The translations under genes were made by a program, and so were the position numbers. From Roseibacillus sp. (GTDB taxonomy: Bacteria; Verrucomicrobiota; Verrucomicrobiia; Verrucomicrobiales; Akkermansiaceae), in NCBI GenBank assembly GCA_051251855.1, contig JBPOGI010000006.1:290902-354901 (forward strand): a stretch of 64,000 bases of DNA, written 5' to 3'. The notes below the pieces were generated by a model. It did not search any database. It saw only the letters and a program-made list of their open reading frames with translations, and was not told the DNA's origin. The stretch's first letter is position 1; the number at the start of each line of letters is the position of its first letter. Below are positions 45,028-64,000 of the stretch, piece by piece.

Positions 45028-45056
45028 TCCCGATATTCGGTAAACGTTGGAATATG

Positions 45057-45092: not shown

Positions 45093-45357
45093 TGGCGGCT
45101 GGCTGTTCAGGCCTTGTCATGACTTGGCCATCACTTGTCTGTCCAACGACGACGGTCCTTTCTGGGGGGGGCAGGAATTTGGAGGGCGTGTCTTGGGAAC
45201 GGCGGCATGGGAGGTTCCTGTCGGAGTCTGCGATGAGTCAAAGTAATGGAGAAGCGATCGAGGTTCGCTTAGGCGAGAAAAGGGGGATTGCAGGGGACGG
45301 AACCGAGGGCATGGCAGCTGGTGCAGGAGAGGTCCCCGCAAGCGGAAAAATCACTCA

Positions 45358-45377
45358 TGTCATCACTTTGAGGACTA
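45358..45377 (+). promoter_or_regulatory. Island regulon motif copy 5 (TGTCATCACTTTGAGGACTA)
   Basis: 18/20 identical to copy 4; upstream of the PEP-CTERM gene. Confidence 0.75.
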
Positions 45378-45470
45378 TCAAGGGCTTGCGTTTTTTGGTT
45401 CCGTTTTTCGGTGGCTCAGACTTTGCTGCTCTGCTTGGCTCCTTTAAAAATCCACTCCTTATTTAACATC

Positions 45471-46244: not shown

Positions 46245-46276
46245 TTCCTTCGAAAGGAAGGAGACTTTTCTTTTGC

Positions 46277-46311
46277 AAACTCCCGTCCCGTATCGGATGG
46301 GAGTTTTTTTT
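46277..46311 (+). terminator. Rho-independent terminator
   Basis: AAACTCCCGTCC-CGTATC-GGATGGGAGTTT hairpin running into a T8 tract after the PEP-CTERM gene. Confidence 0.8.
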
Positions 46312-46346
46312 GACAAATATTTTTCACTCCAATTGACCCACGAACC

Positions 46347-48909: not shown

Positions 48910-49482
48910 CCAGGGCCAATCTTCCGATTTGGAAAGCTGCTTCGTTGCGGCTTCGGCCCAGCCTCGGTTGGCTGCGGAGAAGAGGGCTTCGCGTTCGGCG
49001 ACGGGGAGTTTGTCAGGAGTACGATTGCGGCTCGATTCCTCCATAAAGACGAGGGGGCAGCAGTTTGTGACGAAGTGTTCGGCGAAGAAATCGGAAGGGT
49101 CGGGATATTATTCAAAGAAAAGGCCCCAGAGGCGACGACCGGAGACTTCGGACTTTTGGCAGGCGAATCCTTCGATGAGGCGTTTGGGGTGTTCGTTGGC
49201 GGGCTTGGAGACGGCGGATTCAATTCCCATCCAGTCGCGAACGTGTTCGATTTAGCCAAAGGGGATTCCAGTCTGAGACATTCCCCAAGGACCTGAATTC
49301 ATGCCTAAGAAGAGCACGCGCTTTTTGGAATTACCGAATCGCTCCAGGTAGATGCGGTGGGGCTCCCACGCATAGTCGAGAGGATTGTAGACGTGGGTGA
49401 CGGGTTCTGCAAAAGTGAGTTTGTTGACCTCATCGCAGAGAGTCTTGGCGGCGGTGATGAGTTGGTCGGAGATGGAAGACAT
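48910..49482 (-). pseudogene. SMUG1-family uracil-DNA glycosylase pseudogene
   Basis: Same frame throughout but TAA stops at 49252-49254 and 49108-49110, GMNPGP>GMNSGP, and a ~50-codon internal deletion near 48975 that removes the HPSP motif. Confidence 0.9.
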
Positions 49483-49483
49483 G

Positions 49484-49879
49484 TCAGCGAAGCTTGAGTT
49501 TTTTGGCGAATGATTGGATGGCTTGCGCGGTGCGACGGGTGGCAGGGTAGCGGTTGCTTTTGAGATTAAATAGAGTGTCGGAGGAAATGCCTATTTTGGG
49601 TGCGAGCTTGTAACAGGAAAGGCCGGTTTGTTGGCAAATCGATTCAATCAAATCGGGGATTTCGGCGCGTTCATTCTCGACTTGGTAGCCGAGGAATTTT
49701 TCAATTTTAGGGATGCGGGAGAGGCGAGGTTCGACCAATCCACGCTCCCAATCGGACAAAATGTCGCATGAAATTCCGAGGAGGGTTGCGGTCTCTTTTT
49801 GCGTCCATCGGAGGGCTTGGCGTCTTTGTCGGAGGTGATGGCCGTAGATCGATGGCTTTCCGGGATGGCGCTCAAGCAT
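49484..49879 (-). CDS. Double-HTH (XRE-like) transcriptional regulator, intact copy
   Basis: GHHLRQRRQALRWTQKETATLLGISCDILSDWERG, plus second HTH GLSCYKLAPKIGISSDTLFNL; stop 1 nt before the SMUG1 ATG. Confidence 0.85.
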   Translation of the reverse strand: MLERHPGKPSIYGHHLRQRRQALRWTQKETATLLGISCDILSDWERGLVEPRLSRIPKIEKFLGYQVENERAEIPDLIESICQQTGLSCYKLAPKIGISSDTLFNLKSNRYPATRRTAQAIQSFAKKLKLR

Positions 49880-50061
49880 TGAAAATGAATGCTTCGAGTG
49901 GAATTGGCAAAAAGTGGCTGAATCAACCCAGAGAAATGAATGGGAGGAGGAAGGCGGTTCGACTCGAAAAAGCCTTCATTTTGGGGTTCAACAACTGTTC
50001 CCTAGCATAGCCTCAGGTGGAGAGATGCTTCTGATTTTCTAAGAAGATTTTGTAGAAGAAT

Positions 50062-50799
50062 CTACCTAGCAATGGCCTTCGTTAGTTCAATTTTAGATAA
50101 GCCTTTCGGCAGAGAAACGCCTGTTGCAAGAAGTTTGGCAAGGGCTCCGGTAAAGTAGGCGGCGGAAAAGCTGCAGCCAGTGAGTTGTGCGAAGTTGTGG
50201 TTGAGGGTTGGGACTTGCACCTCATTTCCGTCCACAAAATAGGACATGGGTCTTTTCGCGCATGCGATAGTGCTGGGGGTTTGGGGTGTTGTGTTCGAAA
50301 TCGAAAAAGCGGTTCGAAAGGAGGCGGGCCATTCGGGATAGTCTTCCTCTTCATCTGGAGAAGCGGCAACGACGTGTCGTCCAAGATCAAAAGCGTGGTC
50401 GATCCAAGATTTATAGAGAAGGCAGGTGTGGGGAGAGGCAGGCACTCCGAATGAGCAATTGAGAATGGTTGCTCCCTGGCTCAATGCGGCAAGGGCTCCT
50501 TGATGAATGATGCGGTGTCGATGCTGCCTCGGACCGTTGGTAAGAACTCGAATGGGCAACAAGGTCGCACTTGGGACGAGCCTATGGATAATTCCGGCTA
50601 CTGCCGTGCCGTGACCGATAAGGTCCTCGGGCTCTCGTTCGAACTCTTGAAAAGAGTCATCGAAATCAATTTGAGGTCTGAATTTGGCCCTCGAGAATAA
50701 GGGATGGGTGGCGTCAACACCGGTGTCGAGAATGGCGATCACGAGGTCCTCTTCTTGAGCAGAGTTGTTCGTGTTCTTATGGTCAATCGAGTCCGTCAT
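50062..50799 (-). CDS. S8 (subtilase) serine peptidase, compact, no signal peptide
   Basis: AILDTGVD (Asp), GHGTAVAG (His), LTGCSFSAA (Ser). Confidence 0.88.
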   Translation of the reverse strand: MTDSIDHKNTNNSAQEEDLVIAILDTGVDATHPLFSRAKFRPQIDFDDSFQEFEREPEDLIGHGTAVAGIIHRLVPSATLLPIRVLTNGPRQHRHRIIHQGALAALSQGATILNCSFGVPASPHTCLLYKSWIDHAFDLGRHVVAASPDEEEDYPEWPASFRTAFSISNTTPQTPSTIACAKRPMSYFVDGNEVQVPTLNHNFAQLTGCSFSAAYFTGALAKLLATGVSLPKGLSKIELTKAIAR

Positions 50800-50802
50800 A
50801 TC

Positions 50803-51234
50803 TCAATCGATTTGTAATTTTCGGGCGGCAGACTGCAATTCAGCGAGGGAACTCGAATCAAATTCGAGCGCCTGACTGCTCTCTTCGAAACAAGCGGCGG
50901 TGAGAACTCCTTCGAGTTCATCATCTTTGAAAATAGGAGCGGCCATGAGAGATTTCACTTTCTTTCCGGAGATAGAATCGAAGGTGGGATCGTGTTCTTG
51001 GTTGGCTGGAAGGTTGTTTTCAAGGAGGGGAAGTCCGGTGAGAAAGCATTGGCTGGTGAGTCCTTTCGAGATCGGTTGAAGAAAGTCTGCCTCCAAGGGA
51101 AGTGAGGTGCTGAGAGTTGCTACTAATGCATTGTTTTCCTCATCAAATAGCCACAGAATTAGGTTGTCTGCTTGGAGTGATTTCTCACAAAGATGCAGTT
51201 TGGCGAGAAGATGTGAACGGACTCCAGAGGTCAT
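50803..51234 (-). CDS. Stand-alone GAF domain protein
   Basis: LWLFDEENNALV...KGLTSQCFLTG...HDPTFDSISG..VKSLMAAPI...GVL; stop 3 nt before the peptidase ATG. Confidence 0.8.
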   Translation of the reverse strand: MTSGVRSHLLAKLHLCEKSLQADNLILWLFDEENNALVATLSTSLPLEADFLQPISKGLTSQCFLTGLPLLENNLPANQEHDPTFDSISGKKVKSLMAAPIFKDDELEGVLTAACFEESSQALEFDSSSLAELQSAARKLQID

Positions 51235-51320
51235 CTTTGCTCTAGATAGAGAGTCGAGTCTCGTAACGCGATGAAATTCAGTTGCGGTGTGCTCAAGGGT
51301 ATGGTGGTTTCGGTAGAGAG

Positions 51321-52031
51321 ATGAGCACCGACTTTTGTTCTGATTTGGATTTGGCAGAGTCTGCGATTGAAGGAGATCTTGTGGCCGGTCGACAGGTGGG
51401 TGAGCTGTTGCTTTCGGATAAGTTGAAGGCGATGTTGATCAATCGTGGTGCTTCCTCAGAGGAAGCGCAGGAGATTCAGTCCGAATTGGCGGCTGGTTGT
51501 TTTTCTGAGAGTCCTCAGCGTGGAATGCTTTTTGGATTGCTGGCGAAGTACTCTGGAAAAGCTCCTTTGGCGGCTTATCTCGGGCGAGTGGCTCTCAATC
51601 GTTTGATTAGTTTGAAGAGGCGAAAGACTCCCGAGATGGTCTCGGTGGATGAAGAGGATCCGGAGAAGCCTCCCGTGCAGCTTTCTGATAGTTCGGCATT
51701 GGAAGCGGAAGATGAGGTGATCGATTTGCTGAAGGAAGCGGTGAGAAACTCTCTGCGAAGAGTGAATCAGGAGAAGCTGGTTCTGCTTCGGTTGGTGCAG
51801 TCCTATCAGCTTTCGCAAAAGCGAGTGGGGGAGATGTGGGGGTGGAGTGAGTCTAAGATTTCGCGAAATTTGGGAGAGTTGGTGGTGAGTCTTCGAGACG
51901 AAATTATGGCTGAAGTTCACGGAAGGGACCCCTGGTTGGTGGTGGAGTGGGAGGATTTTGTCGCCCTTTGCGGGGAGTCGATTGACTTGTTTGACTATGA
52001 TGTGATGGCGGAAGGTGTGGCTGCGCCATAA
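51321..52031 (+). CDS. ECF-type RNA polymerase sigma factor
   Basis: Region 2-like YSGKAPLAAYLGRVALNRLISLKRR; region 4 HTH LSQKRVGEMWGWSESKISRNL; C-terminal extension. Confidence 0.8.
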   Translation: MSTDFCSDLDLAESAIEGDLVAGRQVGELLLSDKLKAMLINRGASSEEAQEIQSELAAGCFSESPQRGMLFGLLAKYSGKAPLAAYLGRVALNRLISLKRRKTPEMVSVDEEDPEKPPVQLSDSSALEAEDEVIDLLKEAVRNSLRRVNQEKLVLLRLVQSYQLSQKRVGEMWGWSESKISRNLGELVVSLRDEIMAEVHGRDPWLVVEWEDFVALCGESIDLFDYDVMAEGVAAP

Positions 52032-52045
52032 GTTTCGAGATTTTT

Positions 52046-52071
52046 TGCAAGACTGAGAGAAGAAAGCGTCA
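52046..52071 (+). promoter_or_regulatory. Putative ECF promoter copy 1 (TGCAAGA-N13-GCGTCA)
   Basis: TGCAAGA ctgagagaagaaa GCGTCA, 10 nt before ATG 52082. Confidence 0.75.
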
Positions 52072-52081
52072 ACAAGGGAAG

Positions 52082-52312
52082 ATGAGTGCAGTTACAATAG
52101 GAAACGACGAGTTTGACCTTCTGGAATCCTTTCTCGGTCTTTTTGGAAAAGAGGTCCAGGCGCATGGACGCGAGGAGTTGTCGGAAGCTGACAAGGAGCG
52201 ACTTCGGCAGTTGGCAGCAGGTCAGTTGGCCAAAGAGGAGCGCAGTGCTTTGGTGCCGCTATTAGCGAGCAACGAGTCGGCAATGGAATTTCTAGTGAAG
52301 GAAGCGGGATGA
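52082..52312 (+). CDS. Small acidic helical protein (possible soluble anti-sigma-like partner)
   Basis: 76-aa ORF directly after the sigma gene; L..LAAGQL...ER..L..LL pattern reminiscent of anti-sigma N-terminal helices. Function inferred. Confidence 0.65.
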   Translation: MSAVTIGNDEFDLLESFLGLFGKEVQAHGREELSEADKERLRQLAAGQLAKEERSALVPLLASNESAMEFLVKEAG

Positions 52313-52427
52313 CCTTCTGTTGCGCTCAATGGGCTTCTTCACGACGATTCCAAGCCGGAATCCGAGTAGAGTCCTATCGGGCAGCGAGACGAGTTCGTCT
52401 TGATGATAATTTTTTTGGAAGCAATAA

Positions 52428-55400
52428 ATGAAGGCGTTTTTTTCATTGGGAATTCTATTTTTGACCGCGCTCCATGCGCTAGGACAGCAGGCGGAGATTC
52501 TTGAGGTTGAGAACTCGGTTCAGTCAGCGAAGGCTGGGAAACGCAGCTGGAGCCGTGCGACTACGGGCCAGCAACTGGCGGTGAAGGATCGGGTGCAGAC
52601 TCTTTTCGATAGCCGGGCGATGGTTCGGGTAAGTGAGCTCTACACCATGCGCATGGATGAATTCACCACGGTGGAAATCACTCCTCGGCTGACGGGGAGC
52701 ACCAAGCCGACTCTGAATGTGGCGCGAGGGATTACTTTTATCTTTAGTCGAGAAGAGGAAGGGGAGATCGATGTTACGACGCCGACTGCGAATGCGGCTC
52801 TCAAGGGCACTCAGCTGGTGGTGGAGGTCAGTGAGGGTGGCAAGACGACGATTTCGGTGATTGAAGGGAGGGTGGACCTTTCCAACGAGTTTGGAGCGGT
52901 GGAGCTGATGGCTGGGGAGGCGGGCGAAGCCGAGAAAGGAAAGGCTCCTCGCAAGACGGCGGTGATTGAAGCGAGGAATTTGGTGCAATGGGCGCTCTAC
53001 TATCCGGGAATTCTGGATGCGAATACATTGGGGTTGGATGGGAAAGGGAGCTTGGCTGGCTCCTTGGCAGCCTATCGTCAGGGAGATGTTTTAGGAGCGT
53101 TGGAGCGCTTACCGAAGCAAGGAGGCGGGGGTGTGGGTGAGAAATTGTTTCGAGCGCAAGTGTTGCTGGCGGTGGGACGAGTTGATGACTCTACGCGACT
53201 TTTGCAAACTGTTCCTCATGAGGATTCGAGGCGTCAGGCTTTGGAGCGCTTGATTGAGGCGGTGACCTTTGTTCCTGAGAAACAGGGGAAGGGAGAGGAA
53301 CTGAGAGTCAATCTGCGATTGGGTTGGGATTCGGCGCAAGCAGAACTGGCCTTGGCGGAAAGTTATTATCAACAAGCACGACATCAATTGAAGGAGGCTC
53401 GGGCGCAGGCTCGTCTGGCAATCCAGTTGGCTCCTGACCATGGCTTTGCCTGGGCCCGGTTGGCGGAGCTGGAGTTTTCCTTCGGGGAGAATGGAAAGGC
53501 AGAGAATGCTCTGAATCAAGCGCTGAAACTAACTCCTCGCAATCCGCAAGCGCATGCCTTGCAAGGTTTCATTTTCGCGGGTCGCAATAAACTGGAGCTT
53601 GCGGAGGCCTCTTTCGAGACCGCCCTGAGCATCGATGGCGCCTTGGGGAACGCTTGGTTGGGGCGCGGGCTGGTTAAGATTCGAAGAGGAAATTTAGAGG
53701 AGGGACGGAAGGATTTGCAATCGGCTGCTACGGTGGAGCCGACGCGAGCGATTTTTCATAGCTACTTGGGAAAAGCTTTTGGCGAGGAAGGGGAGCGGAA
53801 GTTGTCAGGCAAAGATTTTGCGCTTGCGAGTCGTCTCGACCCCCTTGACCCCACTCCTTGGCTCTACTCGGCAATTGGGCATCAGAAGAGAAACCAGCTG
53901 AATCGAGCCATTGATGATTTGAGTCAGTCTGTTCGGCTGAATGACAATCGTCGGGTGTATCGATCGCAGCTTTTACTCGACCAGGATCGGGCGGTGCGAA
54001 GCGCCAACTTGGCGACGATGTATCAGAATGCGGGAATGGACTTGGTGGCGGTGCGCGAGGCGACTCGGGCTGTAGAAGCGGACTATACCAGCGCATCAGC
54101 GCACTTGTTCTTGGCAAATTCCTTTGATGCTTTGCGTGACCCGAGGAGGGTGTCCCTTCGCTATGAGACTCCTTGGTTCAATGAGTTGCTCTTGGCGAAT
54201 CTCTTCTCGCCTGTGGGCGGGGGACCTCTTTCGCAATTTGTTTCTCAGCAGGAATACTCCAAGATGTTTCATGCCGATGGCTTGGGGGCAAGTGTTCAGG
54301 GAGAATGGCGCAGTGATGAGGAGATGTTCACGACCGCTTCCGCTTTCGGATCTCATCGCAATTTTGAGTTCGGTATTGATGTCAATTATCGGCAGGCGGA
54401 TGGCAATCGCGTAAACAATCAGTCTGATTTGTTAGAGATTTATGCGCAGGCTAAGTGGCAGGCCACTCCCGATGATATTGTTTACTTTCTTGGTAAGTGG
54501 CAGGAGCAGTCGTCGGGCGATAATTTTCAGACCTTCGATAATCGTCCTCTCGAACCTCTGGTCGATTTCGATGAAAACCAGCGGCCTGGCTTGTTGATGG
54601 CGGGATGGAATCATCGTTGGAAGCCGGGAGTTCATACTTTGTTCTTAGGGGGAAGATTGAGTGCGGAGCAGACTTTGACTAATCCGCAGTCGGAGCAGCT
54701 CAAGGTGGTTCGCTCTCCTTCTCAGCTCGTTCCAGGATTTGTCGACCTTGTGGGAGGGAGTCTTCAGTTCACCGATCCTGCTCTGAATGCAGAAGTGCAG
54801 AATGCGATTGCGAGTGGCGGACCTGTCCCTGGTCAGATTGGAACGGACGGGACTTCGCTTCACCTTTCGCCAACTCTCCTCAATGCGGTGGAGCCGTTCC
54901 TTGGTTCCGGCAGTATCAGCGGGATATCGAGCACCGGTGCTCCGGGTGATCTCTCCTCCTTTGACCTTGTCACTCAGCGTGAGTTCGAAATTTACAGCGC
55001 GGATCTGCAGCAGGTTTTTCAGACAGAGCGCAGTACCCTCTTGATTGGGGGGCGGGCTCAGGGAGGGGAAATTCGGGCACGCAGTCAGCTTGTCTACAAT
55101 CGTCCAGTGGGCGATTTGGATGGCTTTGGGAATCCGGCTTCGACAGAGGAATACAGCTATGATTTCATGCGGTTCAATGCCTACGCTTATGACTACTGGA
55201 AGGTGTTGGATAGTCTCACCTTGTTAGGGGGCGTCTCGTGGGATTGGATTCAAAGTCCGGAAAATTTTCGGAATCCGCCTCTCTCGCCGGATACTCAGAT
55301 TGATCAACGTTTGTCCGGTAAGGCAGGCTTCACCTATTCTCCTTCCTCTTGGATCACGGCACGAGGAATGTTTTCGGAAGGCTTGGGCGGAGTGACCTTC

Positions 55401-56129
55401 GACGAGAGTGTGCGCTTGGAGCCGGTCCAAATTGCGGGATTCAACCAGTCCTTTCGCACCGCTTTGTCAGAATCGATCGCGGGTTCAGTGGAGACGCCGG
55501 AGTTCACCACGTGGGGATTCAGCTTGGAGGGAACCCTGCCGACTCGAACCTGGTGGGGGGTGTCTGCCAGCGGAATTTCACAGGATGTCGAGAGGGAGCG
55601 AGGCATCTTCACGGGATATACCATTCCAGTTCTCTTTGATTTGTTGCCGGTTTTCTTTCCGGATACCACGCGGGAATTACTTGAATATGAGGAATTGCAG
55701 CTCAGCGCGACTTTGAATCAATTGATGGGTGATGAGTGGGCGTTGGGGGCGAGATATCGTCTCACTCGATCTGAGCTTTCCTCCAGTCTGCCTGATTTGG
55801 GTTTGAGCTCATCTGAGGAAGCGCTTCTGCACGAAGTCTCCTTGTTTGCAGATTGGAACTCGCCAACAGGGCTCTTTGCCCGGGTGCAGGGGGACTGGTA
55901 TGCGCAATCATTGGATGGGGTAAATGATTCATCGGGTGCGGCTCGCGAGAGTGATCCGTTTTTCCAGTTCAATGCCAGCCTCGGCTATCGCTTTGCAGAC
56001 AACCAAGGAGAGGTCAGCCTTTCGGCGTTAAATCTCTTCGATCAAGATTATGAGCTCTATCCTTTGAGTCCCTATTTGGAGCTTCCACGCGAACGCACCT
56101 TTGTCGTTCGTTGTCGCTGGAATTTCTGA
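52428..56129 (+). CDS. FecR-domain + TPR + outer-membrane beta-barrel (TonB-dependent receptor-like) protein
   Basis: Signal peptide; FecR-like DRVQT...SRA...VTTPTANAALKGT...VIEGRV; many TPRs (AWARLAELEF, AWLGRGLVKI); amphipathic strands ending RTFVVRCRWNF. Confidence 0.85.
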   Translation: MKAFFSLGILFLTALHALGQQAEILEVENSVQSAKAGKRSWSRATTGQQLAVKDRVQTLFDSRAMVRVSELYTMRMDEFTTVEITPRLTGSTKPTLNVARGITFIFSREEEGEIDVTTPTANAALKGTQLVVEVSEGGKTTISVIEGRVDLSNEFGAVELMAGEAGEAEKGKAPRKTAVIEARNLVQWALYYPGILDANTLGLDGKGSLAGSLAAYRQGDVLGALERLPKQGGGGVGEKLFRAQVLLAVGRVDDSTRLLQTVPHEDSRRQALERLIEAVTFVPEKQGKGEELRVNLRLGWDSAQAELALAESYYQQARHQLKEARAQARLAIQLAPDHGFAWARLAELEFSFGENGKAENALNQALKLTPRNPQAHALQGFIFAGRNKLELAEASFETALSIDGALGNAWLGRGLVKIRRGNLEEGRKDLQSAATVEPTRAIFHSYLGKAFGEEGERKLSGKDFALASRLDPLDPTPWLYSAIGHQKRNQLNRAIDDLSQSVRLNDNRRVYRSQLLLDQDRAVRSANLATMYQNAGMDLVAVREATRAVEADYTSASAHLFLANSFDALRDPRRVSLRYETPWFNELLLANLFSPVGGGPLSQFVSQQEYSKMFHADGLGASVQGEWRSDEEMFTTASAFGSHRNFEFGIDVNYRQADGNRVNNQSDLLEIYAQAKWQATPDDIVYFLGKWQEQSSGDNFQTFDNRPLEPLVDFDENQRPGLLMAGWNHRWKPGVHTLFLGGRLSAEQTLTNPQSEQLKVVRSPSQLVPGFVDLVGGSLQFTDPALNAEVQNAIASGGPVPGQIGTDGTSLHLSPTLLNAVEPFLGSGSISGISSTGAPGDLSSFDLVTQREFEIYSADLQQVFQTERSTLLIGGRAQGGEIRARSQLVYNRPVGDLDGFGNPASTEEYSYDFMRFNAYAYDYWKVLDSLTLLGGVSWDWIQSPENFRNPPLSPDTQIDQRLSGKAGFTYSPSSWITARGMFSEGLGGVTFDESVRLEPVQIAGFNQSFRTALSESIAGSVETPEFTTWGFSLEGTLPTRTWWGVSASGISQDVERERGIFTGYTIPVLFDLLPVFFPDTTRELLEYEELQLSATLNQLMGDEWALGARYRLTRSELSSSLPDLGLSSSEEALLHEVSLFADWNSPTGLFARVQGDWYAQSLDGVNDSSGAARESDPFFQFNASLGYRFADNQGEVSLSALNLFDQDYELYPLSPYLELPRERTFVVRCRWNF

Positions 56130-56138
56130 TAGGACAGT

Positions 56139-58169
56139 ATGAAGGTGAGTGAGAAAGGAATCCGAAGAGCGAGCGCGATTTTTGGAATCGTGCTGACTTT
56201 GGTCGCTGGCTGGTTGGGGCTTTCCCGAGTGGGTCCTTTTGTCAGTTTGAGCTATGACTTGCCATTTGCGATTCATCGGGCGGCACCTTCACCGGATGTT
56301 TGTTTGGTCTATGTTACTGATCATCAGGATGGCACTTTGAGCCGTGAGATTCAGCCTGATTTGTTAGAGGCTTTGAATCGGGCAGGAGCGAAGGCCGTTG
56401 CCTACGATATCGTGTTTGAGCAAGAGGTCCCGCACGTCGATCCTGAGTTTGCGATGGCGATTCGGAAGTTTAGAGGAGTTGATGAGGAGGGAGAAGGGGT
56501 GGATGGCGCTCGCCAAAGGGAGGTCTTTTTGGCGTTCAGTCAGGTTTCATCAAGTGGAGATGGATTCGATGCCTCGATTCTTACTCGTCCTAATAATGAA
56601 CTCTACGAAGCGGTGGGCCATCATTCTCCGGTGGTGGTTTCTTATCAGGACGACAAGTATGTTGCGCGTAGAATTACTACCGAATTTGGAGATTGGCCTA
56701 CCCTTTGTTGGTCGGTGGCCTCCAGCTTCCGACGAGAGTTAAGCAATGAAGAGCCGAAGTTGGGCTTGTGGCTGAATTATCCGGGGCCTTCTCGTTCGCT
56801 TGGGAGTGAGAATGCAGGGGTGAAGATACCATGGTATCCAGCGGATGCGGTCGTTTCGGGGGGAGTGAAGCCTGCTGCCTTTAAGGATAAAATTGTCTTT
56901 GTTGGGGGAGCATTGGAAGGAGTTGATGAGGCGCTGGGGCGGGACCAGTTCATGACTCCCTATCACCGCATTTCCAAACGTTCTCCTTATATGAGTGGGG
57001 TGGAGCTGCAGGCTCTGATGACGTCCAATCTATTGGCGGGAAATGGGCTTAAGAAATCATCCCGCAAGGAGGAATCATGGGTTTTGGTGGGCTTCGGGAT
57101 TTTGGTGGCCTTGCTGATGGTCAGGCTCCGTCCCGCGTATGGTGTTGTGGCCTCGGTGGTGCTCTGTGCTTTGGTCTTTGGAGTGGGAGTGGCGACGATG
57201 AGTTTTGGTGGTTTTTGGGTTCCGTGGGCGGTGTTGGCATTGGTGCAAGTGCCGACGGCATTGCTGTGGGGGACGGGTTCGCACTTCTATATTGAACGTC
57301 TTTTCCGCGCGCGTTTGGAAGAAGAGAAGCGGGTGATGCGGGAAGCTTTTCAGAGGTATGTTTCGCCGCCGATGTTAGACCAGCTCACGGAGTCGGGTTT
57401 CTCAACCCCTTTGGGAGGAGAGAAGCGTGAGGTAGCGGTCATGTTTACCGACATCGCGGACTTCACCAAGAATTGCGAGCGGGTGGGTGACCCGGAGAAA
57501 GTCGTGGCCTCTCTCAACGAGTATTTTGAGCGGACGACGAAGGAGATCTTTGATTGTGATGGGGTGGTTATCAAGTTCATCGGGGACGCAATTGTGGCCG
57601 GATGGGGGGCTCCGGTAGATGACCCAGCAGCCGCGCGCAATGCCGCGAAGGCAGCCTGGGGATTGTTTGAAAATTCGGAACTTGAGATGGAGGGGGTGAA
57701 GCTGAAAACGCGAGTAGGAATTCACTTCGGCGAAGTGCTGGCGGGGAACATCGGGAGCAGTCAGCACATCGACTACACCTACATCGGAGACGCGGTGAAT
57801 CTGGCGGCTCGCTTGGAGAGCCTGAATAAGCAGCTGGGAACGAATATTTTGCTGAGCGAGGAAGTCGCTTCCCAATTGGGTGACGAGTTCGTGCTGCGGC
57901 GAGTGGGCAATTTTCAGGTGAAAGGGCGCAGCGAGCCTACAGGGGTATATGAGTTGTTGGGGCTAGTCTCTTCAGAGAAACAAGAAGAGTGGATTGAGGC
58001 CTATGAGAGAGGACTAGAGAGTTTTGAAGAGGGGGACTTGGAGGCTGCCCTGGATTCGTTCAAGGCTGTCGAAGGGCTGAGATCATTCAGTGATGGTCCA
58101 TCCCAGTTGCTAGTGAAAACAATTGAACAAGGAACAACGAACGGAATCATTGTGATGACCGAAAAATGA
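56139..58169 (+). CDS. CHASE2-domain class III adenylate/guanylate cyclase
   Basis: CHASE2 motifs AGAKAVAYDIVF, FKDKIVFVG, MSGVELQA; three TMs; cyclase VMFTDIADFT, KFIGDAI, YTYIGDAVNLAARLE. Confidence 0.93.
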   Translation: MKVSEKGIRRASAIFGIVLTLVAGWLGLSRVGPFVSLSYDLPFAIHRAAPSPDVCLVYVTDHQDGTLSREIQPDLLEALNRAGAKAVAYDIVFEQEVPHVDPEFAMAIRKFRGVDEEGEGVDGARQREVFLAFSQVSSSGDGFDASILTRPNNELYEAVGHHSPVVVSYQDDKYVARRITTEFGDWPTLCWSVASSFRRELSNEEPKLGLWLNYPGPSRSLGSENAGVKIPWYPADAVVSGGVKPAAFKDKIVFVGGALEGVDEALGRDQFMTPYHRISKRSPYMSGVELQALMTSNLLAGNGLKKSSRKEESWVLVGFGILVALLMVRLRPAYGVVASVVLCALVFGVGVATMSFGGFWVPWAVLALVQVPTALLWGTGSHFYIERLFRARLEEEKRVMREAFQRYVSPPMLDQLTESGFSTPLGGEKREVAVMFTDIADFTKNCERVGDPEKVVASLNEYFERTTKEIFDCDGVVIKFIGDAIVAGWGAPVDDPAAARNAAKAAWGLFENSELEMEGVKLKTRVGIHFGEVLAGNIGSSQHIDYTYIGDAVNLAARLESLNKQLGTNILLSEEVASQLGDEFVLRRVGNFQVKGRSEPTGVYELLGLVSSEKQEEWIEAYERGLESFEEGDLEAALDSFKAVEGLRSFSDGPSQLLVKTIEQGTTNGIIVMTEK

Positions 58170-58194
58170 ATTTGGCTGAGATTGATCTTTTCTT

Positions 58195-58220
58195 TGCAAG
58201 AAGGACGAGTTGTTGCGTCA
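58195..58220 (+). promoter_or_regulatory. Putative ECF promoter copy 2 (TGCAAGA-N13-GCGTCA)
   Basis: TGCAAGA aggacgagttgtt GCGTCA in the gap before the 58244 gene. Confidence 0.75.
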
Positions 58221-58243
58221 CAGTAGAAAATAAGTAGAATGAA

Positions 58244-60535
58244 ATGAAGGTTCGAAAAATGAGTTCGAGTGAGAAAATCAGGACGATGACAAGGCGGTGT
58301 TTTAGGAGAGAGCGCGAGGTTGAAGGGGTTGCAAGGAGTGTTGTCTCCTTGCTTTTCATGGCCTTCAATTTTTCTGCTTATGGTCTCGTAGTGAAGTCCT
58401 CCGATGCTCCAACGGAGGACATTATTGACTTCTCTCCACCTGGCCTTGTGGTTGATACAGCGCTACTTGATGAGGCGGTTCACTCCAATCATGCGCGAGG
58501 ACAGTTGTTTTCTTTAGGAGAGGGAATGGGCAATCGATTTTTGATTACTGGAGTTACGGTCCGTAAGAGTTCGACCCAGACATTTACTGGCGATCAACTC
58601 ACGATGAGAATTTTTAAGGGGACATCAAGCCAGTGGCTAACGGGTACTGGGCATTCGTCTGCAGAGGATGGAGACGACTACTATGTTGGGACGAGTGTGA
58701 CTGAGCTTGGCTCCGAGAGGTTCGATCTATGGGGAACGATTGAGGATAATGAGTATGTCACTTTCGAGTTTTTTGCTCCGGTCATCGTTGAGGAAAATTC
58801 GGATTTAGGGTTCTTGATGACCTATGAACAGGCTGACGGGTCCGCTTCTGATCGTTTTCGTCACTATGAGCACAATGGCATTCCGGATTCGGATGGAAAT
58901 CGTCTCTCGGTCCGGACTTCCGATCACACGGTTACTAGTTTTCGAAGGATACAGTATTTTGTTCATGGAATCGAGGTGGTCTCCCCTACTGATTTTTCGC
59001 CTTTGGCGGATGCGCTTCCAGCCTGCGTCTCTATAGTAGAAGGGGGTGACGTGACTCTTGTTCCCGATATTGATGTTGGGGCGGGAGCGACCTTCGAGTG
59101 GTTTGAGGAGGTAGTAGATGGGGCTGCGGTTCCCATTAGTTGGGCAACTTCAGCGAGTTTTCCCGCAACGGGGGTAACCGAAGAGAGCCGTCTTTGGGTG
59201 AGGATTACCGATGGTCTGGATGTGTTCGTAAGCGGGATTGTGGAGTTGCAACCAACGAGGAATTTGTGGACCTATGTTGACGCGCAGACCAGTCAATCTG
59301 ATGTCACGGGGTATACTACTTTGGGCGACGGGCAGGTGATTGTGCCGGAGGATTTGGGAAGTCTCGACTGGACGCAATCTCCTGCGATCAATCAGGGAGA
59401 CAATGCTTGGGCGAATCGAGGATACGGCAATGGCGGAACGGTGTTGGAAGCTTGGTCTGGAGAAGACGCACCGATATTGAAGACCGTGCTAACGGGTCTT
59501 GAGCCAAACGAAGTCTATCAAATTTCAGGGTATTTTTGGACAAGGCTGGACCAGAGATGGGATATCGGTTTGGGCTTGCTGGCTACCGACCCCTATCATC
59601 GCTTCTCCACGCGTGCTTGTCATTTAGGCGACTTTAATACGGACGTGAGTGGAACCTTCTTTGATGCGGGAAGATTTGGTTTGGCGGGTGTGAAAATACG
59701 TGAGGACGATCTCTATTTTCAAGAGATTGTGCTTACGGTAGCAGATGCGGATGAGAACGGAGAGTTATCGGTGCTCATTAATGATGTGCCAGGAAATGGT
59801 GGGAGAACATGGTACGATGGTCTTGGCTATCGGCTTGCGCCACTTTCTCACCGGGTTGGAGGAGGGGTGACTCAAACAAGTTTTGGAGCATCGGTGGGAG
59901 GCACTACAGGAGCTCTCAAGGTTGTGATTTCACCTCCAGAGATTGGAGCTCGATGGAATCTTGCTCCGAGTGAGCCGGATGCTCTCTTCGGGCTTGAGTC
60001 AGAGGATACTCTCTCGTCAATTGCGGCTTCATCGGAACCAAAGATTCTGGTGTTGAGTGAGGTGGAAGGATATTTGATTCCGCAAAGTGCCGAGATCGAG
60101 ATCGTGGCTGGCGAAACTGTTGTGGTAACTTACGAGTATGCTCCAGAGTCACTGCCTTTGACGAAGGAGGAGATTTGGCTGTTGAACAGCTTCGGGGAAT
60201 TGGGGCGCGAGGGAACTCAGGACTGGGAAGAAGATTTCGATGGTGATGGTCGGAGTAATCGAGTGGAGTTTCTTGCAGGCACGGATCCGGATCAGGACGA
60301 CGACTTTTTTAAGTTGGACAAGACCGGTATCGAGGGAGGGCTGTTTCGAGCCGAGTTTTTAGGGAAAGGCGAGAGGAGTTATTGTTTGGAGCGACTCAAT
60401 CTAGAGACGCTTGTTTGGGAGCCGGTGCAGGGTCAGGAAACGGGTAGCTTGTTAAGTGGAGGTTCAATCGAATTGCAGGACACCGTAAGCGGAGAAGACA
60501 AGGGCCTTTTCCGAGTGACTGTCGACTTTCCCTGA
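58244..60535 (+). CDS. Secreted multidomain beta-rich protein with Ig-like and C-terminal sorting-like domain
   Basis: Hydrophobic signal VVSLLFMAFNFSAYG; Ig-like EGGDVTL...FEWF...LWVRIT; tail DFDGDGRSNRVEFLAGTDP...KGLFRVTV. Exact start uncertain. Confidence 0.75.
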   Translation: MKVRKMSSSEKIRTMTRRCFRREREVEGVARSVVSLLFMAFNFSAYGLVVKSSDAPTEDIIDFSPPGLVVDTALLDEAVHSNHARGQLFSLGEGMGNRFLITGVTVRKSSTQTFTGDQLTMRIFKGTSSQWLTGTGHSSAEDGDDYYVGTSVTELGSERFDLWGTIEDNEYVTFEFFAPVIVEENSDLGFLMTYEQADGSASDRFRHYEHNGIPDSDGNRLSVRTSDHTVTSFRRIQYFVHGIEVVSPTDFSPLADALPACVSIVEGGDVTLVPDIDVGAGATFEWFEEVVDGAAVPISWATSASFPATGVTEESRLWVRITDGLDVFVSGIVELQPTRNLWTYVDAQTSQSDVTGYTTLGDGQVIVPEDLGSLDWTQSPAINQGDNAWANRGYGNGGTVLEAWSGEDAPILKTVLTGLEPNEVYQISGYFWTRLDQRWDIGLGLLATDPYHRFSTRACHLGDFNTDVSGTFFDAGRFGLAGVKIREDDLYFQEIVLTVADADENGELSVLINDVPGNGGRTWYDGLGYRLAPLSHRVGGGVTQTSFGASVGGTTGALKVVISPPEIGARWNLAPSEPDALFGLESEDTLSSIAASSEPKILVLSEVEGYLIPQSAEIEIVAGETVVVTYEYAPESLPLTKEEIWLLNSFGELGREGTQDWEEDFDGDGRSNRVEFLAGTDPDQDDDFFKLDKTGIEGGLFRAEFLGKGERSYCLERLNLETLVWEPVQGQETGSLLSGGSIELQDTVSGEDKGLFRVTVDFP

Positions 60536-60536
60536 C

Positions 60537-61652
60537 TCACTGGCTTTCGGTCTGCTTAACGAAGTTGGTTAAGCGTTGGACCATAGTGGTAAGGTAGTCT
60601 TGAACTGGTTCGAACTCTTGCATTCGGGCCCAGGTATCGACGACTTCAAGGGAACGGAGATCGCGGTCGCGGAGGTCGTTTCCGTCGAAGGCGGTTTGGG
60701 TGGTGAGGAGGTTGTTGGAGACCATCATGTTCCCATTGGGGAAAGTGGCGGCGAAGGATTGCAGTTCGGTAGCGGTGCGTTCGGGGGCGAGGAGCCAGCT
60801 TTGGAGGATGCTGCGTTGTTCGTTGCTGCGGACGTCGGCGCGGGCCATTTGCTGGGCGGTCATCTCGGGGCGGGCTTGGTGGAGGGTCGTGTCGGCAGCG
60901 AGGAGGGGGAGCATGGCCTCGGTCTGGTTTTGAGTGAGGCGATCGAGGGTGATGAAGCTGGCGTGGGCGAGGTCTTTGCGATCTTTATTTTGCACCAGTT
61001 CTGAGAGGAGGGGGCTGGATTCGGTGGCTCCGATGTGGACGAGGGTATCGAAGGCATTGAGATAGCCGGCCGAAGGATTCTGCTGCCAATCGGGGTTTTG
61101 GATAAGGGCTTCTGTTTTTTCTCGGAGAAAATCGCGGGAGTCTTCTTCGACGCGGGCGACATTCCGCAGCGCCAAAGCCCACTCGTCGGCGGTGGTGGGA
61201 GTGGAAAGAATTTCGCGGCTGAGTTGAGCTGCGGCCTCGGGATTGATTTTTCCGAGGTGGTCTAAGAGTGCGGTGCGAAGGGAGGCGGCAGATTTGAGCT
61301 GGCCGTCTTTTTCGACTTCGAAGGTGAGGGGGAGTTCGGCATCGTCTCCGGTGGCGAGGTAGTCTTCTACAAAGGTGGCCGCTTCCTCGGGAGAGAGTTG
61401 TTCGAGGGTTTGGCGGAGTTCGGTGAGGAGTTTCTGAGCGGACTGGGGGTCGCTGCTTTGGGCGAGGTTGGAGCAAAGCTGTTTTGCCTCAGAAAGATGG
61501 GACTGAGATGGGTGAGGGGTTGCGGGAGAGGATGGAAGAGCGTTCGGTTGATTGGGTTGACTATCAGGAGTGCTTTCTTTTCTGGAGAGCAGCACAAGAC
61601 AAAGTACGATCGCTAAACCGAGTGAAAGGAGGATGATACTTTTTGGCTTCAT
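60537..61652 (-). CDS. Membrane-anchored helical (HEAT-like) hypothetical protein
   Basis: MKPKSIILLSLGLAIVLCLVLL anchor from ATG 61652, Pro/Ser linker, helical body. Confidence 0.75.
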   Translation of the reverse strand: MKPKSIILLSLGLAIVLCLVLLSRKESTPDSQPNQPNALPSSPATPHPSQSHLSEAKQLCSNLAQSSDPQSAQKLLTELRQTLEQLSPEEAATFVEDYLATGDDAELPLTFEVEKDGQLKSAASLRTALLDHLGKINPEAAAQLSREILSTPTTADEWALALRNVARVEEDSRDFLREKTEALIQNPDWQQNPSAGYLNAFDTLVHIGATESSPLLSELVQNKDRKDLAHASFITLDRLTQNQTEAMLPLLAADTTLHQARPEMTAQQMARADVRSNEQRSILQSWLLAPERTATELQSFAATFPNGNMMVSNNLLTTQTAFDGNDLRDRDLRSLEVVDTWARMQEFEPVQDYLTTMVQRLTNFVKQTESQ

Positions 61653-61660
61653 CAAGAGAG

Positions 61661-61686
61661 TGACGTTGGAATGGAGAGAACTTGCA
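61661..61686 (-). promoter_or_regulatory. Putative ECF promoter copy 3 (TGCAAGT-N13-ACGTCA)
   Basis: Minus strand TGCAAGT tctctccattcca ACGTCA, 8 nt before ATG 61652. Confidence 0.7.
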
Positions 61687-61808
61687 CAATGATTGTATGT
61701 TTTGCGAGGGAAGGAATGCTTCTTTGGTCTTGTGATGGGCTGACTGTGGTCCTTAAGCTGCTCTGTTTTCCGGTAGAATTGGCTTTCGAAAAAAAGTTTG
61801 AGAAATTC

Positions 61809-61834
61809 TGCAAGAGCACGAGAACGTTGCGTCA
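61809..61834 (+). promoter_or_regulatory. Putative ECF promoter copy 4 (TGCAAGA-N13-GCGTCA)
   Basis: TGCAAGA gcacgagaacgtt GCGTCA upstream of ATG 61895. Confidence 0.75.
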
Positions 61835-61894
61835 ATCCTGCACTGGGATGCGAAGGCGTCTCACTCATTCATCAAATCCCCATTGAAAAAGATT

Positions 61895-63268
61895 ATGAAA
61901 AAGTTCCTATATTTCATCACCTGCCTCTTACTGACATTCAATTCCTCCCTTTGGGCGGATATTGTTGTTCCCGGGGCAGATGGTTCGGACTGTGATCTGA
62001 CGATCACGGTCGATACCGAGATTGATTTGTCACTGGCTGCGACTGCACCTTGGAATGCCAGTTATGCCACCTTGGCGGCAGCAGACCCTGACCGAGCGGC
62101 GGCTGACTATATTGCGAAAGGAGTCTACGACCCTGAGAAGTGGGCGGTGGTCTTTCGCTATACCGATGTGAGTATCGCGGCAGGGGCGACAGTGACGTTT
62201 AAGAATCACCCGAGTCGGGCTCCGGTGGTTTGGCTGGTCAGTGGGGATGTGGATATTGCGGGGACGGTGAGTTTGGATGGGGAGAACGCTGCCGACGTGG
62301 TGGTTACTCGGCCAATGAGACAGGCGGAGCCTGGGCCAGGTGGTTTTCGAGGAGGTCTCTCCACTCATGATGTTAGCTCTCCTGTCTTTCAAACCTTGAA
62401 TCAAGGGTCGGGCTTTGGTCCTGGAGGGGGCAATATTGGCGACGGCCCCGGAGCGAAAAAGGGACATGGCGGAAACTACTTCACTGCTTCATCGCAGACT
62501 AGCGAAGGACCTCGACCTATTCTTTATGGGAATCCAAGTTTGTTGCCATTGATTGGAGGGTCTGGGGGGGCTGGAGATGGTGAGCGTATTTTCGGAGATG
62601 TTGGCGGGGGCGGAGGCGGAGGTGCAATTCTTGTTGCTTGCAAGAATTGCATCTCTTTGAGCGGTATAATTCGTGCCAATGGTGGCCCCGGTTTCGGCTC
62701 GGGTGATAGGGAAACAGGTGGTGGAAGCGGCGGAGGAGTTCGAGTGGTTTGCAATGAATTTAACGGTGACGGAGCAATCCAGACCGCAGGCGGAGGAGAG
62801 GGGTGGTCAACCGGAGGCTTGGGTCGAATTCGTATCGAGAGGGTCCTCGTCGACAATACTCTCAACTTCAGTCCAACTCCGAGTTCCGCTGTTCTTCTAG
62901 ATGATGACGAAGCATTAGTTTGGTTACCTAATATTGCTCCAAGTGCTGAGTTGATTTCGCTCGAAGGAGTCATGGCTCCTAGCGATCCACGAGCAGGAGT
63001 TGATGGAGAAAGTTTCGGGCCAGATTTTATTGCGGGGAATTCACCCACTGCTGAAGCGGTGATTGAGACCACAAACCTTCCTCAAGATGGGACTGTTCAA
63101 ATACGAGTGAACCGGAGGACAAACGGGGATTATCAAACTGTGCAAGCAACGTTTCACTCTCAGATTAGCGCAGATCCTTTGGTTTTGAGATGGGTCGCAG
63201 ACGTACCAATCACCGATGGCTATTCTGCGATTCAGGTTCGGATCGCGACGCCTTCTTCGAATCCGTAG
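61895..63268 (+). CDS. Secreted glycine-rich domain protein
   Basis: Signal peptide MKKFLYFITCLLLTFNSSLWA; GPGGFRGG, GGSGGAG, GGGGGGGAIL, ANGG, GGGSGGGVRV motifs. Confidence 0.8.
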   Translation: MKKFLYFITCLLLTFNSSLWADIVVPGADGSDCDLTITVDTEIDLSLAATAPWNASYATLAAADPDRAAADYIAKGVYDPEKWAVVFRYTDVSIAAGATVTFKNHPSRAPVVWLVSGDVDIAGTVSLDGENAADVVVTRPMRQAEPGPGGFRGGLSTHDVSSPVFQTLNQGSGFGPGGGNIGDGPGAKKGHGGNYFTASSQTSEGPRPILYGNPSLLPLIGGSGGAGDGERIFGDVGGGGGGGAILVACKNCISLSGIIRANGGPGFGSGDRETGGGSGGGVRVVCNEFNGDGAIQTAGGGEGWSTGGLGRIRIERVLVDNTLNFSPTPSSAVLLDDDEALVWLPNIAPSAELISLEGVMAPSDPRAGVDGESFGPDFIAGNSPTAEAVIETTNLPQDGTVQIRVNRRTNGDYQTVQATFHSQISADPLVLRWVADVPITDGYSAIQVRIATPSSNP

Positions 63269-63302
63269 CTAGTTGATTTCGCTTTCGAAAGGAAGAAACG
63301 TA

Positions 63303-64000
63303 ATGATGAAAACGAATTGGAGAGCGATTTTGATTGGGATGCTTAGCCTTGGGCTAAGTGCGATCCAAGCAAGAGCTGTTGAGCAATTCTATCAGGTCGA
63401 TTCGCAATCATCCTTTTATAACATCGTAAGCAATTCTCCTCTCGTCGTTGAGCTAGCGAGTTTGGAGATTTCTCCCGGGGATGTCATCTCTTTGACTAAG
63501 AAGGGGAGCTACGATGGGGGTGGCTCAGTTGGAGTGAGAGGGCGGTTGCGGGCCGTCTTTAGTGCCTCCAACCAATTGTTACCTATCGGCAATGACCATC
63601 GTGTAGTGGATGCTATTGAAGCTGGAGATGATGTCGTTAGTTTTGCGCCTGATATTCCTGAAGACTTTAGCTTGTTAGGAGTGAATCATGCAGATGACTT
63701 CACTCTTCAAATCGAAGTTCCAGCGATGGCCGGTTACCTTTTTTTTGGAGTAGGGGATAGTAATTTCGGAGACAATTCGGATCCCGATGGAGACTTTGGA
63801 GTGACGATCAGTTCGAACTCTTGTGAGACCTTCGAGTATCCTGAATTCATCACCCGCGAGTATTCGGTCTTTTCGTCTTCCGAATCGGACCCTGGGCAAC
63901 CTTACCAAGAGTTCATCACCCGCGAGTATTCGGTTTTCTCGTCCTCCGAGTCCGATCCTGCCCAACCTTACCAAGAGTTCATCACTCGTGAGTATTCGGT
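63303..64000 (+). CDS. Secreted protein with 22-aa tandem repeats (partial, runs off window end)
   Basis: Manual translation MMKTNWRAILIGMLSLGLSAIQARA...; open to 64000; not in the ORF track. Confidence 0.8.
   Translation, partial: MMKTNWRAILIGMLSLGLSAIQARAVEQFYQVDSQSSFYNIVSNSPLVVELASLEISPGDVISLTKKGSYDGGGSVGVRGRLRAVFSASNQLLPIGNDHRVVDAIEAGDDVVSFAPDIPEDFSLLGVNHADDFTLQIEVPAMAGYLFFGVGDSNFGDNSDPDGDFGVTISSNSCETFEYPEFITREYSVFSSSESDPGQPYQEFITREYSVFSSSESDPAQPYQEFITREYS
63843..64000 (+). repeat. 66-bp coding tandem repeat (at least 2.4 copies)
   Basis: Units start at 63843, 63909 and 63975 and encode EFITREYSVFSSSESDP(G/A)QPYQ, differing mostly at synonymous sites. Confidence 0.9.

Follow-up and report, generated by a model that had tools for sequence, protein, structure and literature searches.

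How could a bacterium carry a signal from its surface to transcription through a locus that encodes an extracytoplasmic function (ECF) sigma factor, a cytoplasmic protease, a GAF protein, and an outer-membrane receptor paired with an adenylate cyclase? The question is raised by one end of a 64,000-nucleotide (nt) stretch, here called the window, of the genome of Roseibacillus sp. (Akkermansiaceae, Verrucomicrobiota; GenBank GCA_051251855.1, contig JBPOGI010000006.1, positions 290,902 to 354,901), where an earlier note on this DNA had read positions 50062-64000 as a candidate for an undescribed six-gene trans-envelope signaling system with its own regulon. On the minus strand, a gene for an S8 subtilase (50062-50799, 245 amino acids (aa), assigned from the list of open reading frames (ORFs) and Pfam) lies 3 nt from a GAF gene (50803-51234, 143 aa), and 86 nt separate the latter from a plus-strand sigma gene (51321-52031, ATG at 51321, 236 aa). 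A predicted anti-sigma gene (52082-52312, 76 aa, soluble, no zinc motif), an NsrA-like receptor gene (52428-56129, 1233 aa) and a gene for a CyaK-like CHASE2 class III cyclase (56139-58169, 676 aa) follow on the plus strand. The ORFs, the 3-nt spacing and the 86-nt divergent gap are as the note described them, and Pfam and NCBIfam return the domains it had named: Peptidase_S8 (E 5e-17), GAF (2.7e-8), FecR with TPRs and a TonB-type barrel, and CHASE2 with Guanylate_cyc.

We find that the sigma, small-protein, GAF and S8 genes form a module conserved in Verrucomicrobia, and we put forward a chain of events that is quite possible as a whole, if short of likely, and whose parts differ in strength. 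A surface ligand would act through the NsrA-like receptor on the CHASE2 cyclase and raise cyclic AMP (cAMP); cAMP would bind the GAF protein, which would then activate the subtilase; the subtilase would cleave the predicted anti-sigma of 76 aa on the C-terminal side of His28, releasing the sigma factor to transcribe from four TGCAAG-N15-CGTC sites.

A conserved module and its one-chain relatives

In the best 80 of 301 S8 loci (kin included, not dereplicated; 50 have flanks of at least 5 kb on each side), the GAF gene lies immediately 5′ of the S8 gene in 76, and all four core genes are found together in 45, or in 29 of the 50 well-flanked loci, arranged as a single operon, divergently or convergently. 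The closest relatives of the window S8 come from Roseibacillus, Akkermansiaceae and Luteolibacter. A strong match to the sigma factor occurs in 18 of 101 related genomes, and every one of these 18 encodes the S8 family, which is present in 24 of the 101; the small-protein gene adjoins the sigma gene in 15 of 18 loci and adjoins the GAF-S8 pair in the remaining three (L141, L142 and L144). Two observations count against so tight an association: the S8 gene stands without a nearby GAF or sigma gene in L083, L123, L139 and L145, and 6 of the 24 S8-bearing genomes lack a strong sigma match, as judged with a single-protein query.

The receptor and cyclase are not part of this core. The receptor gene, intact or cut by a contig end, lies beside the module in only 3 of 80 S8 loci (L053, L070 and L112; 2 of the 50 well-flanked loci), with an internally deleted remnant in a fourth, L033, and the fixed six-gene system of the earlier note is thereby ruled out. 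A full-length receptor is found in 4 of the 101 relatives, all four of which carry the sigma family, and receptor and cyclase genes have joined the module in two separate S8 clades, that of L070 and L112 and that of the window, with nine duplicate loci dropped. Seven other receptor-bearing genomes in a 401-genome sample of the phylum yield no S8-family match, in phylum-wide searches that scored few candidates per genome (2-7).

Other genes recur at the edges of the module. A BrnT/BrnA-like toxin-antitoxin pair lies 3′ of the S8 gene, or directly 3′ of a fusion gene (described below) with no S8 gene between, in L037, L039, L041, L083, L139, L163 and L166, and an L,D-transpeptidase (YkuD) gene adjoins GAF-S8 in L106, L143, L147, L149 and L150, part of a 13-locus cluster in which the sigma gene is mostly elsewhere.

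The window sigma factor has no match to any Pfam sigma model at E<=0.1 and falls below the cut-offs of TIGR02937 (38 of 42.9 bits) and TIGR03001. Its family profile aligns end to end with AlgU, RpoE and SigW over sigma2 and sigma4 (E 4e-9 to 2e-4), and the presence of these two regions only, with no sigma1 or sigma3, places it among the ECF (group 4) sigma factors; relatives match Sigma70_r2 and, weakly, r4_2, and the C-terminus carries a conserved helix, DPWLxLEWxDFxxLC. We find no hydrophobic segment in the sigma factor, the 76-aa protein, the GAF protein or S8.

The small-protein family comprises 405 clusters at 50% identity, and nearly all of its best 150 members are stand-alone proteins of 70-120 aa. 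A structural model of the window protein (pLDDT 78) shows a helix at residues 9-19, a low-confidence flexible linker, and a helical bundle at residues 33-76. When this bundle is compared with 48,161 chains, RslA ranks first (Z 3.8, root-mean-square deviation (rmsd) 1.6, 42 aa), followed by MucA (Z 3.6, rmsd 1.9) and RsiW (Z 3.5, rmsd 1.7) over 42-44 aa, and then by RskA and ChrR. Against an anti-sigma assignment stand the low Z-scores, all below 4, which we attribute to the tiny size of the domain; by sequence, the family profile finds chance matches only in the PDB. The zinc motif HxxxCxxC occurs in 0 of 150 family members, which rules out a ZAS redox switch. With this predicted fold, and with the same domain joined to sigma and GAF in 110 fusion proteins, the 76-aa protein is very probably the anti-sigma factor of the adjoining sigma factor, a role that the earlier note had given it; for inhibition of the sigma factor, gene adjacency, the fusions and the predicted promoter feedback are indirect indications.

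These 110 proteins, of about 460 aa and found among 8,000 scored, fuse a sigma factor, the small-protein domain (anti-sigma domain, ASD) and a C-terminal GAF domain in one chain; their clusters (P0002-P0111) are annotated merely as "GAF domain" or "sigma24". The fusion is present in 1 of 201 genomes of the family, and in G036 a single ORF joins the three domains (L134:12856-14256, G036:C49). Segment 204-224 of the fusion aligns both with the C-terminal helix of the sigma factor and with the first helix of the anti-sigma; a direct comparison of the sigma and small-protein profiles gives no match, and the common helix is visible through the fusion only. A search with the sigma alignment for longer relatives returned none, a failure of sensitivity, since the fusion family exists. 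A model of the fusion is confident for each domain (pLDDT 86) and not for their overall arrangement (pTM 0.49), and its fold-search matches are all to GAF domains. The fusion family is a candidate ligand-switched one-chain sigma factor, in which the tethered anti-sigma domain would come free on binding of the ligand, with no need for a protease.

The subtilase and the anti-sigma linker

The S8 protein is a subtilase of cytoplasmic type, above the PF00082 cut-off and with neither signal peptide nor pro-peptide. The catalytic triad D25/H63/S210 is present in 97 of 97 relatives. Glu156, found in 96 of 97 and preceding a conserved WP, aligns with position 166 (Gly166) of subtilisin BPN', the floor of the S1 pocket, where an Asp shifts preference to Lys at P1 (PMC3378952, in excerpt). 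The best NCBIfam match is QhpE (NF049966), also a small cytoplasmic subtilase that lacks a signal peptide; the score (83 bits against a 165-bit cut-off) and the gene context, with no qhp gene noted among annotated neighbors, exclude a leader peptidase of the QhpE type, and the window S8 family differs from it in invariant motifs of its own, CSFG, KxWxD and EWP.

A candidate substrate site lies in the linker of the small protein. The pattern [VAI]-x-[GA]-[RHK], with a hydrophobic P4, a small P2 and a basic P1 residue, occurs in 137 of 150 family representatives and 58 of 61 locus copies, and reads V25-Q-A-H28 in the window. It is found in 1 of 96 fusions, and both genomes that encode sigma and anti-sigma and no S8 lack it. 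No S8 gene lies beside any of 10 fusion loci (short loci, two overlapping pairs included), and G036 has no S8-family member, only a distant subtilase. This co-variation suggests that S8 cuts at the linker, being the pattern expected if it does; what weakens the case is the small number of independent events behind it (one fusion clade and one genus), kin not being independent. Taken together, we regard cleavage of the anti-sigma linker at V-x-G/A-R/H/K by S8 as reasonably likely.

The same data bear on a different division of labor, in which the GAF protein would act on the anti-sigma or sigma factor by binding, as in partner switching, and S8 would have another job, such as trimming the GAF protein, trimming the C-terminal helix of the sigma factor or resetting the system. 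Fusion proteins do occur without S8, S8 does sometimes stand alone, and the alignment of the sigma C-terminal and anti-sigma N-terminal helices to one fusion segment suggests competition for a site. Nonetheless, stand-alone anti-sigmas retain the basic-P1 motif, which disappears where there is no S8, and the GAF gene is tied more tightly to S8 than to sigma. Residue 72 of the GAF protein is Glu in 90 of 94 stand-alone copies and mostly Val in the fusions (78 of 98), as would be expected of a residue in contact with S8. We therefore consider a binding-only role for the GAF protein unlikely, and activation of the subtilase the better account; that the GAF protein gates the switch is probable.

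Features of both window proteins suggest that this copy of the GAF/S8 pair may be weakened. The oxyanion Asn, kept in 95 of 97 S8 relatives, is replaced in the window S8, and there alone, by Asp (N149D); this S8 also departs from the family at C209 and lies on a long branch. In the window GAF protein, Val takes the place of the conserved Thr93, and the N-terminal helices are missing.

A shared promoter motif and the surrounding island

A blind dyad search finds GCAA-N16-CGT 5′ of 15 of 38 dereplicated anti-sigma genes, compared to shuffle maxima of 5-7. Within 75 nt of the anti-sigma start, the motif is present in 17 of 38 with a 16-nt spacer and in 8 of 38 with a 17-nt spacer; the same check finds it ahead of 0 of 66 GAF genes and of at most 1 of 41 sigma genes, and the dyad search reveals no promoter motif 5′ of the sigma and GAF genes. 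The window holds four exact copies of TGCAAG-N15-CGTC where 0.15 are expected, each pointing into a gene, and a matrix built solely from other genomes places them at ranks 1, 2, 4 and 13 genome-wide, with the anti-sigma site at the top. We take this motif to resemble promoters of the SigW/SigM type, and it is very likely the promoter of the window sigma factor, with recognition by the sigma factor itself presumed.

The four sites define a small predicted regulon. The first (52046-52070, plus strand, 11 nt 5′ of the anti-sigma ATG) would read through from the anti-sigma gene into the receptor and cyclase genes. The second (58195-58219, plus) precedes the gene for a 763-aa probable surface protein (58244-60535, plus), and the third (61662-61686, minus) lies 9 nt 5′ of the ATG at 61652 of a minus-strand gene for a 371-aa membrane-anchored protein (60537-61652), a member of a Verrucomicrobia family with a HEAT-like lead. 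This gene most likely starts at 61652 and not at 61868, because the predicted promoter directly precedes the former; the anchor is N-terminal. The fourth (61809-61833, plus) precedes the gene for a Gly-rich probable exported protein (61883-63268, plus; a Verrucomicrobia family without a Pfam model) together with the start of a gene for a giant surface protein (63273-64000, plus). The regulon would therefore combine the anti-sigma-receptor-cyclase operon with exported proteins, providing both negative and positive feedback. In silico, this bears out the earlier proposal of a regulon of exported proteins and adds what that proposal had missed, namely that the sigma factor is predicted to drive the receptor and cyclase genes as well. 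Of the four exported proteins that it placed after the cyclase, all four genes are there; the second is on the minus strand, and the last is the mere beginning of a giant protein.

Outside the island the motif is not enriched across the genome (137 sites at spacer 15 versus 137-171 at other spacers), which rules out a wide regulon. In other genomes, the motif lies 7-11 nt 5′ of the receptor ATG in L053 and L133, and is also found 5′ of a separate FecR gene in L130 (a weaker site), of homologs of the minus-strand gene in L137 and L164, and of a gene for a cyclic nucleotide monophosphate (cNMP)-binding protein in L158; in the L034/L137 cluster it precedes DUF928 and an X2 homolog. It is absent 5′ of five receptors from genomes that lack a strong sigma-family match. 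Detracting from this picture, no promoter is found 5′ of the receptors in L135 and L136, nor 5′ of the cNMP-binding gene of the island.

The exported proteins recur in similar company. The 763-aa protein has an N-terminal domain with paralogs on contig C1 and shares its C-terminus with the giant protein, which is about 3,500 aa in all and contains FN3, cadherin-like and Ig repeats and, by eye, two trypsin-like-looking stretches. Relatives of the giant protein lie near the module or a fusion (L035/L131 and L165), the 371-aa protein recurs beside receptor-cyclase or module loci (L131, L133, L135, L137 and L164), and homologs of the Gly-rich protein adjoin the receptor-cyclase pair in L133 and L136.

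The island extends beyond the window. Contig C10 ends with the window, and its last 77 nt are identical to the first 77 of contig C9, an exact overlap from which, repetitive as it is, we infer that the two contigs join; tandem 23-aa FITREYSVFSSSESDP repeats (window 63834-64000) break the assembly at this point. On C9, the rest of the giant gene (C9:1-9951) is followed by genes for a 154-aa cNMP-binding protein (C9:10015-10479) and a DUF3307 protein (C9:10504-10863). Two copies of an imperfect direct repeat of about 1 kb bracket the whole island of about 25 kb and twelve genes, all of them open reading frames. The left copy (48980-49930) holds a broken uracil-DNA glycosylase gene and an HTH_3 gene, and in the right copy, 3′ of DUF3307 on C9 (L002 ~11070-12030), the glycosylase gene is intact; a third copy of the HTH part of the repeat is found at G000:C10:316862-317215. 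Upstream and unrelated, window positions 41692-48674 encode a 1,111-aa FN3/LamG-like secreted protein, a PEP-CTERM protein and a GH92-like alpha-mannosidase, labels that were assigned by eye.

The departures in the window GAF and S8 proteins can now be weighed against the state of the island. The mechanism could be right for the family while the GAF/S8 arm decays in this genome, on an island that is a patchwork and in which receptor and cyclase merely share the sigma promoter. Consistent with this, the window S8 has the unique N149D and C209 and sits on a long branch, and the window GAF has T93V and a short N-terminus; in a same-genus genome the receptor has suffered an internal deletion, one glycosylase copy at the edge of the island is broken, and receptor and module occur independently elsewhere. 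However, the twelve island genes are all open, the S8 triad and Glu156 are intact, the four promoters are perfect matches to the consensus, and the receptor-cyclase pair has joined the module in two separate S8 clades. We regard decay as improbable, even more so than a binding-only GAF protein.

Receptor, cyclic nucleotide and known systems

The receptor has a signal peptide, a FecR domain at residues 54-149, TPRs and a beta-barrel ending in Phe, all in one ORF, and this confirms the fusion of a FecR-like domain to an outer-membrane protein described in the earlier note. The receptor-cyclase half is, however, not undescribed, as had been supposed: a FecR-TPR-beta-barrel gene of about 1,200 aa directly 5′ of a CHASE2 class III cyclase gene is the architecture of NsrA-CyaK in Sinorhizobium meliloti. 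A pair on S. meliloti pSymB (L168; 1,216 and 649 aa) matches in order, through the FecR domain (29%), the TPRs (29%), the barrel end and the cyclase domain (32%), and is presumably nsrA/cyaK, the record being unannotated. NsrA and CHASE2 cyclases signal through Clr (PMC7529298, PMC13001267 and PMC5498481, all in excerpt), and a similar gene cluster has been noted in Campylobacterota (PMC9239204, in excerpt). Here the comparison ends, in that S. meliloti reads cAMP with the CRP-family Clr, whereas the island encodes GAF, S8, anti-sigma and sigma together with a cNMP-binding protein, and the window receptor and cyclase, unlike NsrA-CyaK, are predicted sigma targets. Two variants of the pair were also seen: in a same-genus genome in which no cyclase was found, the remnant receptor (L033:2273-3118) is an in-frame protein of 281 aa in which the FecR domain runs straight into the final ~100-120 aa of the barrel, and in L155:6772-8784 the partner of an NsrA-like receptor is a CHASE2-Ser/Thr kinase and not a cyclase.

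At other module loci, different inputs replace the receptor-cyclase pair. A separate FecR protein, a porin and a CHASE2 cyclase are found in L038, L039 and L130, with DUF3307 and cNMP-binding genes too in L039 and L130; ShlB, TPR-CHAT, a CHASE2 cyclase and DUF928 appear as the input in L034/L137; a HAMP cyclase lies beside the module in L081 and relatives, TPR-S cyclases in L103, L128 and L140, and a Ser/Thr kinase-receiver protein in L047-L049. At least five cyclase architectures (CHASE2, HAMP, TPR-S, DZR-AAA and GAF-cyclase) recur adjacent to the module. In L034:1-5748 and in L137, the genes for the ShlB/POTRA transporter, TPR-CHAT protease, CHASE2 cyclase and DUF928 sit between the sigma pair and GAF-S8, and L039:5079-10551 holds two anti-sigma copies, three FecR proteins and two porins in one locus.

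Is cAMP the ligand of the GAF protein? The window cyclase retains D438, K479, D483, T547, N554 and R558, which we take to be the adenylate-type set. It is the only PF00211 match and the only class III cyclase found in the genome, in which, at 95% completeness, the 154-aa protein is the only PF00027 match, so that a CRP-like regulator carrying a cNMP domain is not found. Within the window organism's family, 5 of the 7 genomes that have this sigma family also have a cyclase, versus 5 of the 53 that lack it. Of 10 fusion loci, 5 have a cNMP-binding gene in their flanks. The GAF domain itself, which is also the C-terminus of the sigma-ASD-GAF fusions, is by resemblance of the cNMP-binding kind seen in phosphodiesterases (PDEs), CyaB2 and Lcd1: by sequence, the best PDB matches of the family are Anabaena CyaB2, Leptospira Lcd1 (cAMP-bound) and PDE GAFs, and by fold cNMP GAFs take ranks 1-11 and PtsP rank 12. 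The GAF domain of PtsP is, to our knowledge, not a cNMP binder. Stand-alone copies keep Gly58 (94/94), Asp86 (86/94) and Thr93 (84/94), and the pattern Gly...Asp-x3-Gly-x2-Thr presumably marks the cNMP pocket residues of a GAF domain.

Several observations pull the other way. PtsP ranks just behind the cNMP GAFs, which leaves the ligand call soft; two genomes of high completeness, G008 (97%) and G048 (94%), have an intact core and no class III cyclase that we could find; a cyclase or cNMP-binding gene lies in the flanks of only 15 of the 50 well-flanked S8 loci; and the stand-alone cNMP-binding protein, which escaped the earlier note because contig C9 was outside its view, is a competing, second candidate reader of cAMP. 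These points invite the explanation that the switch works as proposed, but that the GAF protein senses another small molecule and cAMP is an output of the regulon, read by the cNMP-binding protein. On this account the 35 of 50 loci with neither gene, the position of receptor and cyclase downstream of sigma, the cNMP-binding gene that travels with both module and fusion, and a window GAF without the conserved Thr93 would all fall into place. It has to contend, though, with the closest structure and sequence matches of the GAF domain, which are cNMP-binding GAFs, with the recurrence of cyclases of many architectures beside the module, and with signs that the two exceptions are recent losses: the receptor of G008 is internally deleted, and G048 keeps its cNMP-binding and DUF3307 genes in the order of L130, minus the cyclase. 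We judge another ligand to be rather unlikely, and lean slightly toward cAMP from this cyclase as the ligand of the GAF protein.

The relay that we propose has a functional parallel in CalpL-CalpT-CalpS, in which a cyclic nucleotide activates a protease, an anti-sigma is cut and an ECF sigma factor is freed (PMC11417357, in excerpt). Judged by domains, the two have no component in common: that system differs in using cA4, a SAVED-Lon protease and a 33-kDa anti-sigma in a type III CRISPR setting, compared with a cNMP-type GAF, a separate subtilase, a 76-aa anti-sigma and envelope receptors here, and no SAVED-Lon domain is found among the annotated neighbors of module loci. With the Class I anti-sigma/ECF pairs (RseA-SigE, MucA-AlgU, RsiW-SigW and RslA-SigL), the window shares an ECF sigma gene followed by a gene for an ASD-like bundle, and a TGCAAG/CGTC-type autoregulated promoter. 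In Class I anti-sigmas an extra helix follows the bundle; in the window protein it precedes the bundle. The window protein also differs in being soluble and zinc-free with no membrane segment, GAF-fused one-chain forms exist, and its release is predicted to depend on a dedicated cytoplasmic subtilase and not on site-1 and site-2 membrane proteases. The FecI-FecR-FecA system likewise places an outer-membrane receptor and a FecR-type domain in the locus, and here too the sigma factor is predicted to induce its own receptor. The FecR domain, however, here belongs to the periplasmic portion of the outer-membrane protein itself or to a separate exported protein (L038, L039 and L130), and the anti-sigma is a separate cytoplasmic protein in place of an inner-membrane FecR; a canonical FecIR pair is ruled out, as the gene after sigma encodes a soluble protein without a FecR domain and there is no membrane anti-sigma.

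We find no description of the sigma/anti-sigma/GAF/S8 module, its promoter or the one-chain fusion in the open literature. The main text of the 2021 ECF classification (PMC7826278) contains no match for Verrucomicrob, GAF or cyclase; in the portion of its supplement covered here, Peptidase_S8, CHASE2 and Guanylate_cyc do not appear and the single GAF entry is unrelated, with later groups that may bear on novelty. That classification states that it excludes sigma factors without Pfam sigma2/sigma4 matches, and the window sigma factor, which has none, falls under this exclusion.

The locus represents predicted ECF/anti-sigma signaling with a likely new input route. More broadly, and still more tentatively than for the relay in the window, an unclassified ECF sigma family may take the place of CRP in turning the signal of receptor adenylate cyclases into transcription, in a split relay and in a one-chain form that a cyclic nucleotide would switch directly, with interchangeable inputs (NsrA-like barrel, FecR with porin, ShlB with CHAT, HAMP cyclase or Ser/Thr kinase). 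The predictions are concrete, namely the promoter sequence, cleavage after residue 28, Glu156 as the S1 residue, and the ligand, and all parts are small and soluble, so that the claim is open to test in E. coli and in vitro. If true, this would name the missing cytoplasmic output of NsrA/CyaK-like receptor cyclases for bacteria without CRP, provide a non-CRISPR case of a second messenger acting through a protease on an anti-sigma, built from unrelated parts, and add a natural ligand-switched one-chain sigma factor. The regulon of exported Verrucomicrobia proteins, with its 3,500-aa surface protein, suggests a response to surface contact, and the relay would constitute a new, so far undescribed way for bacteria to read cAMP.

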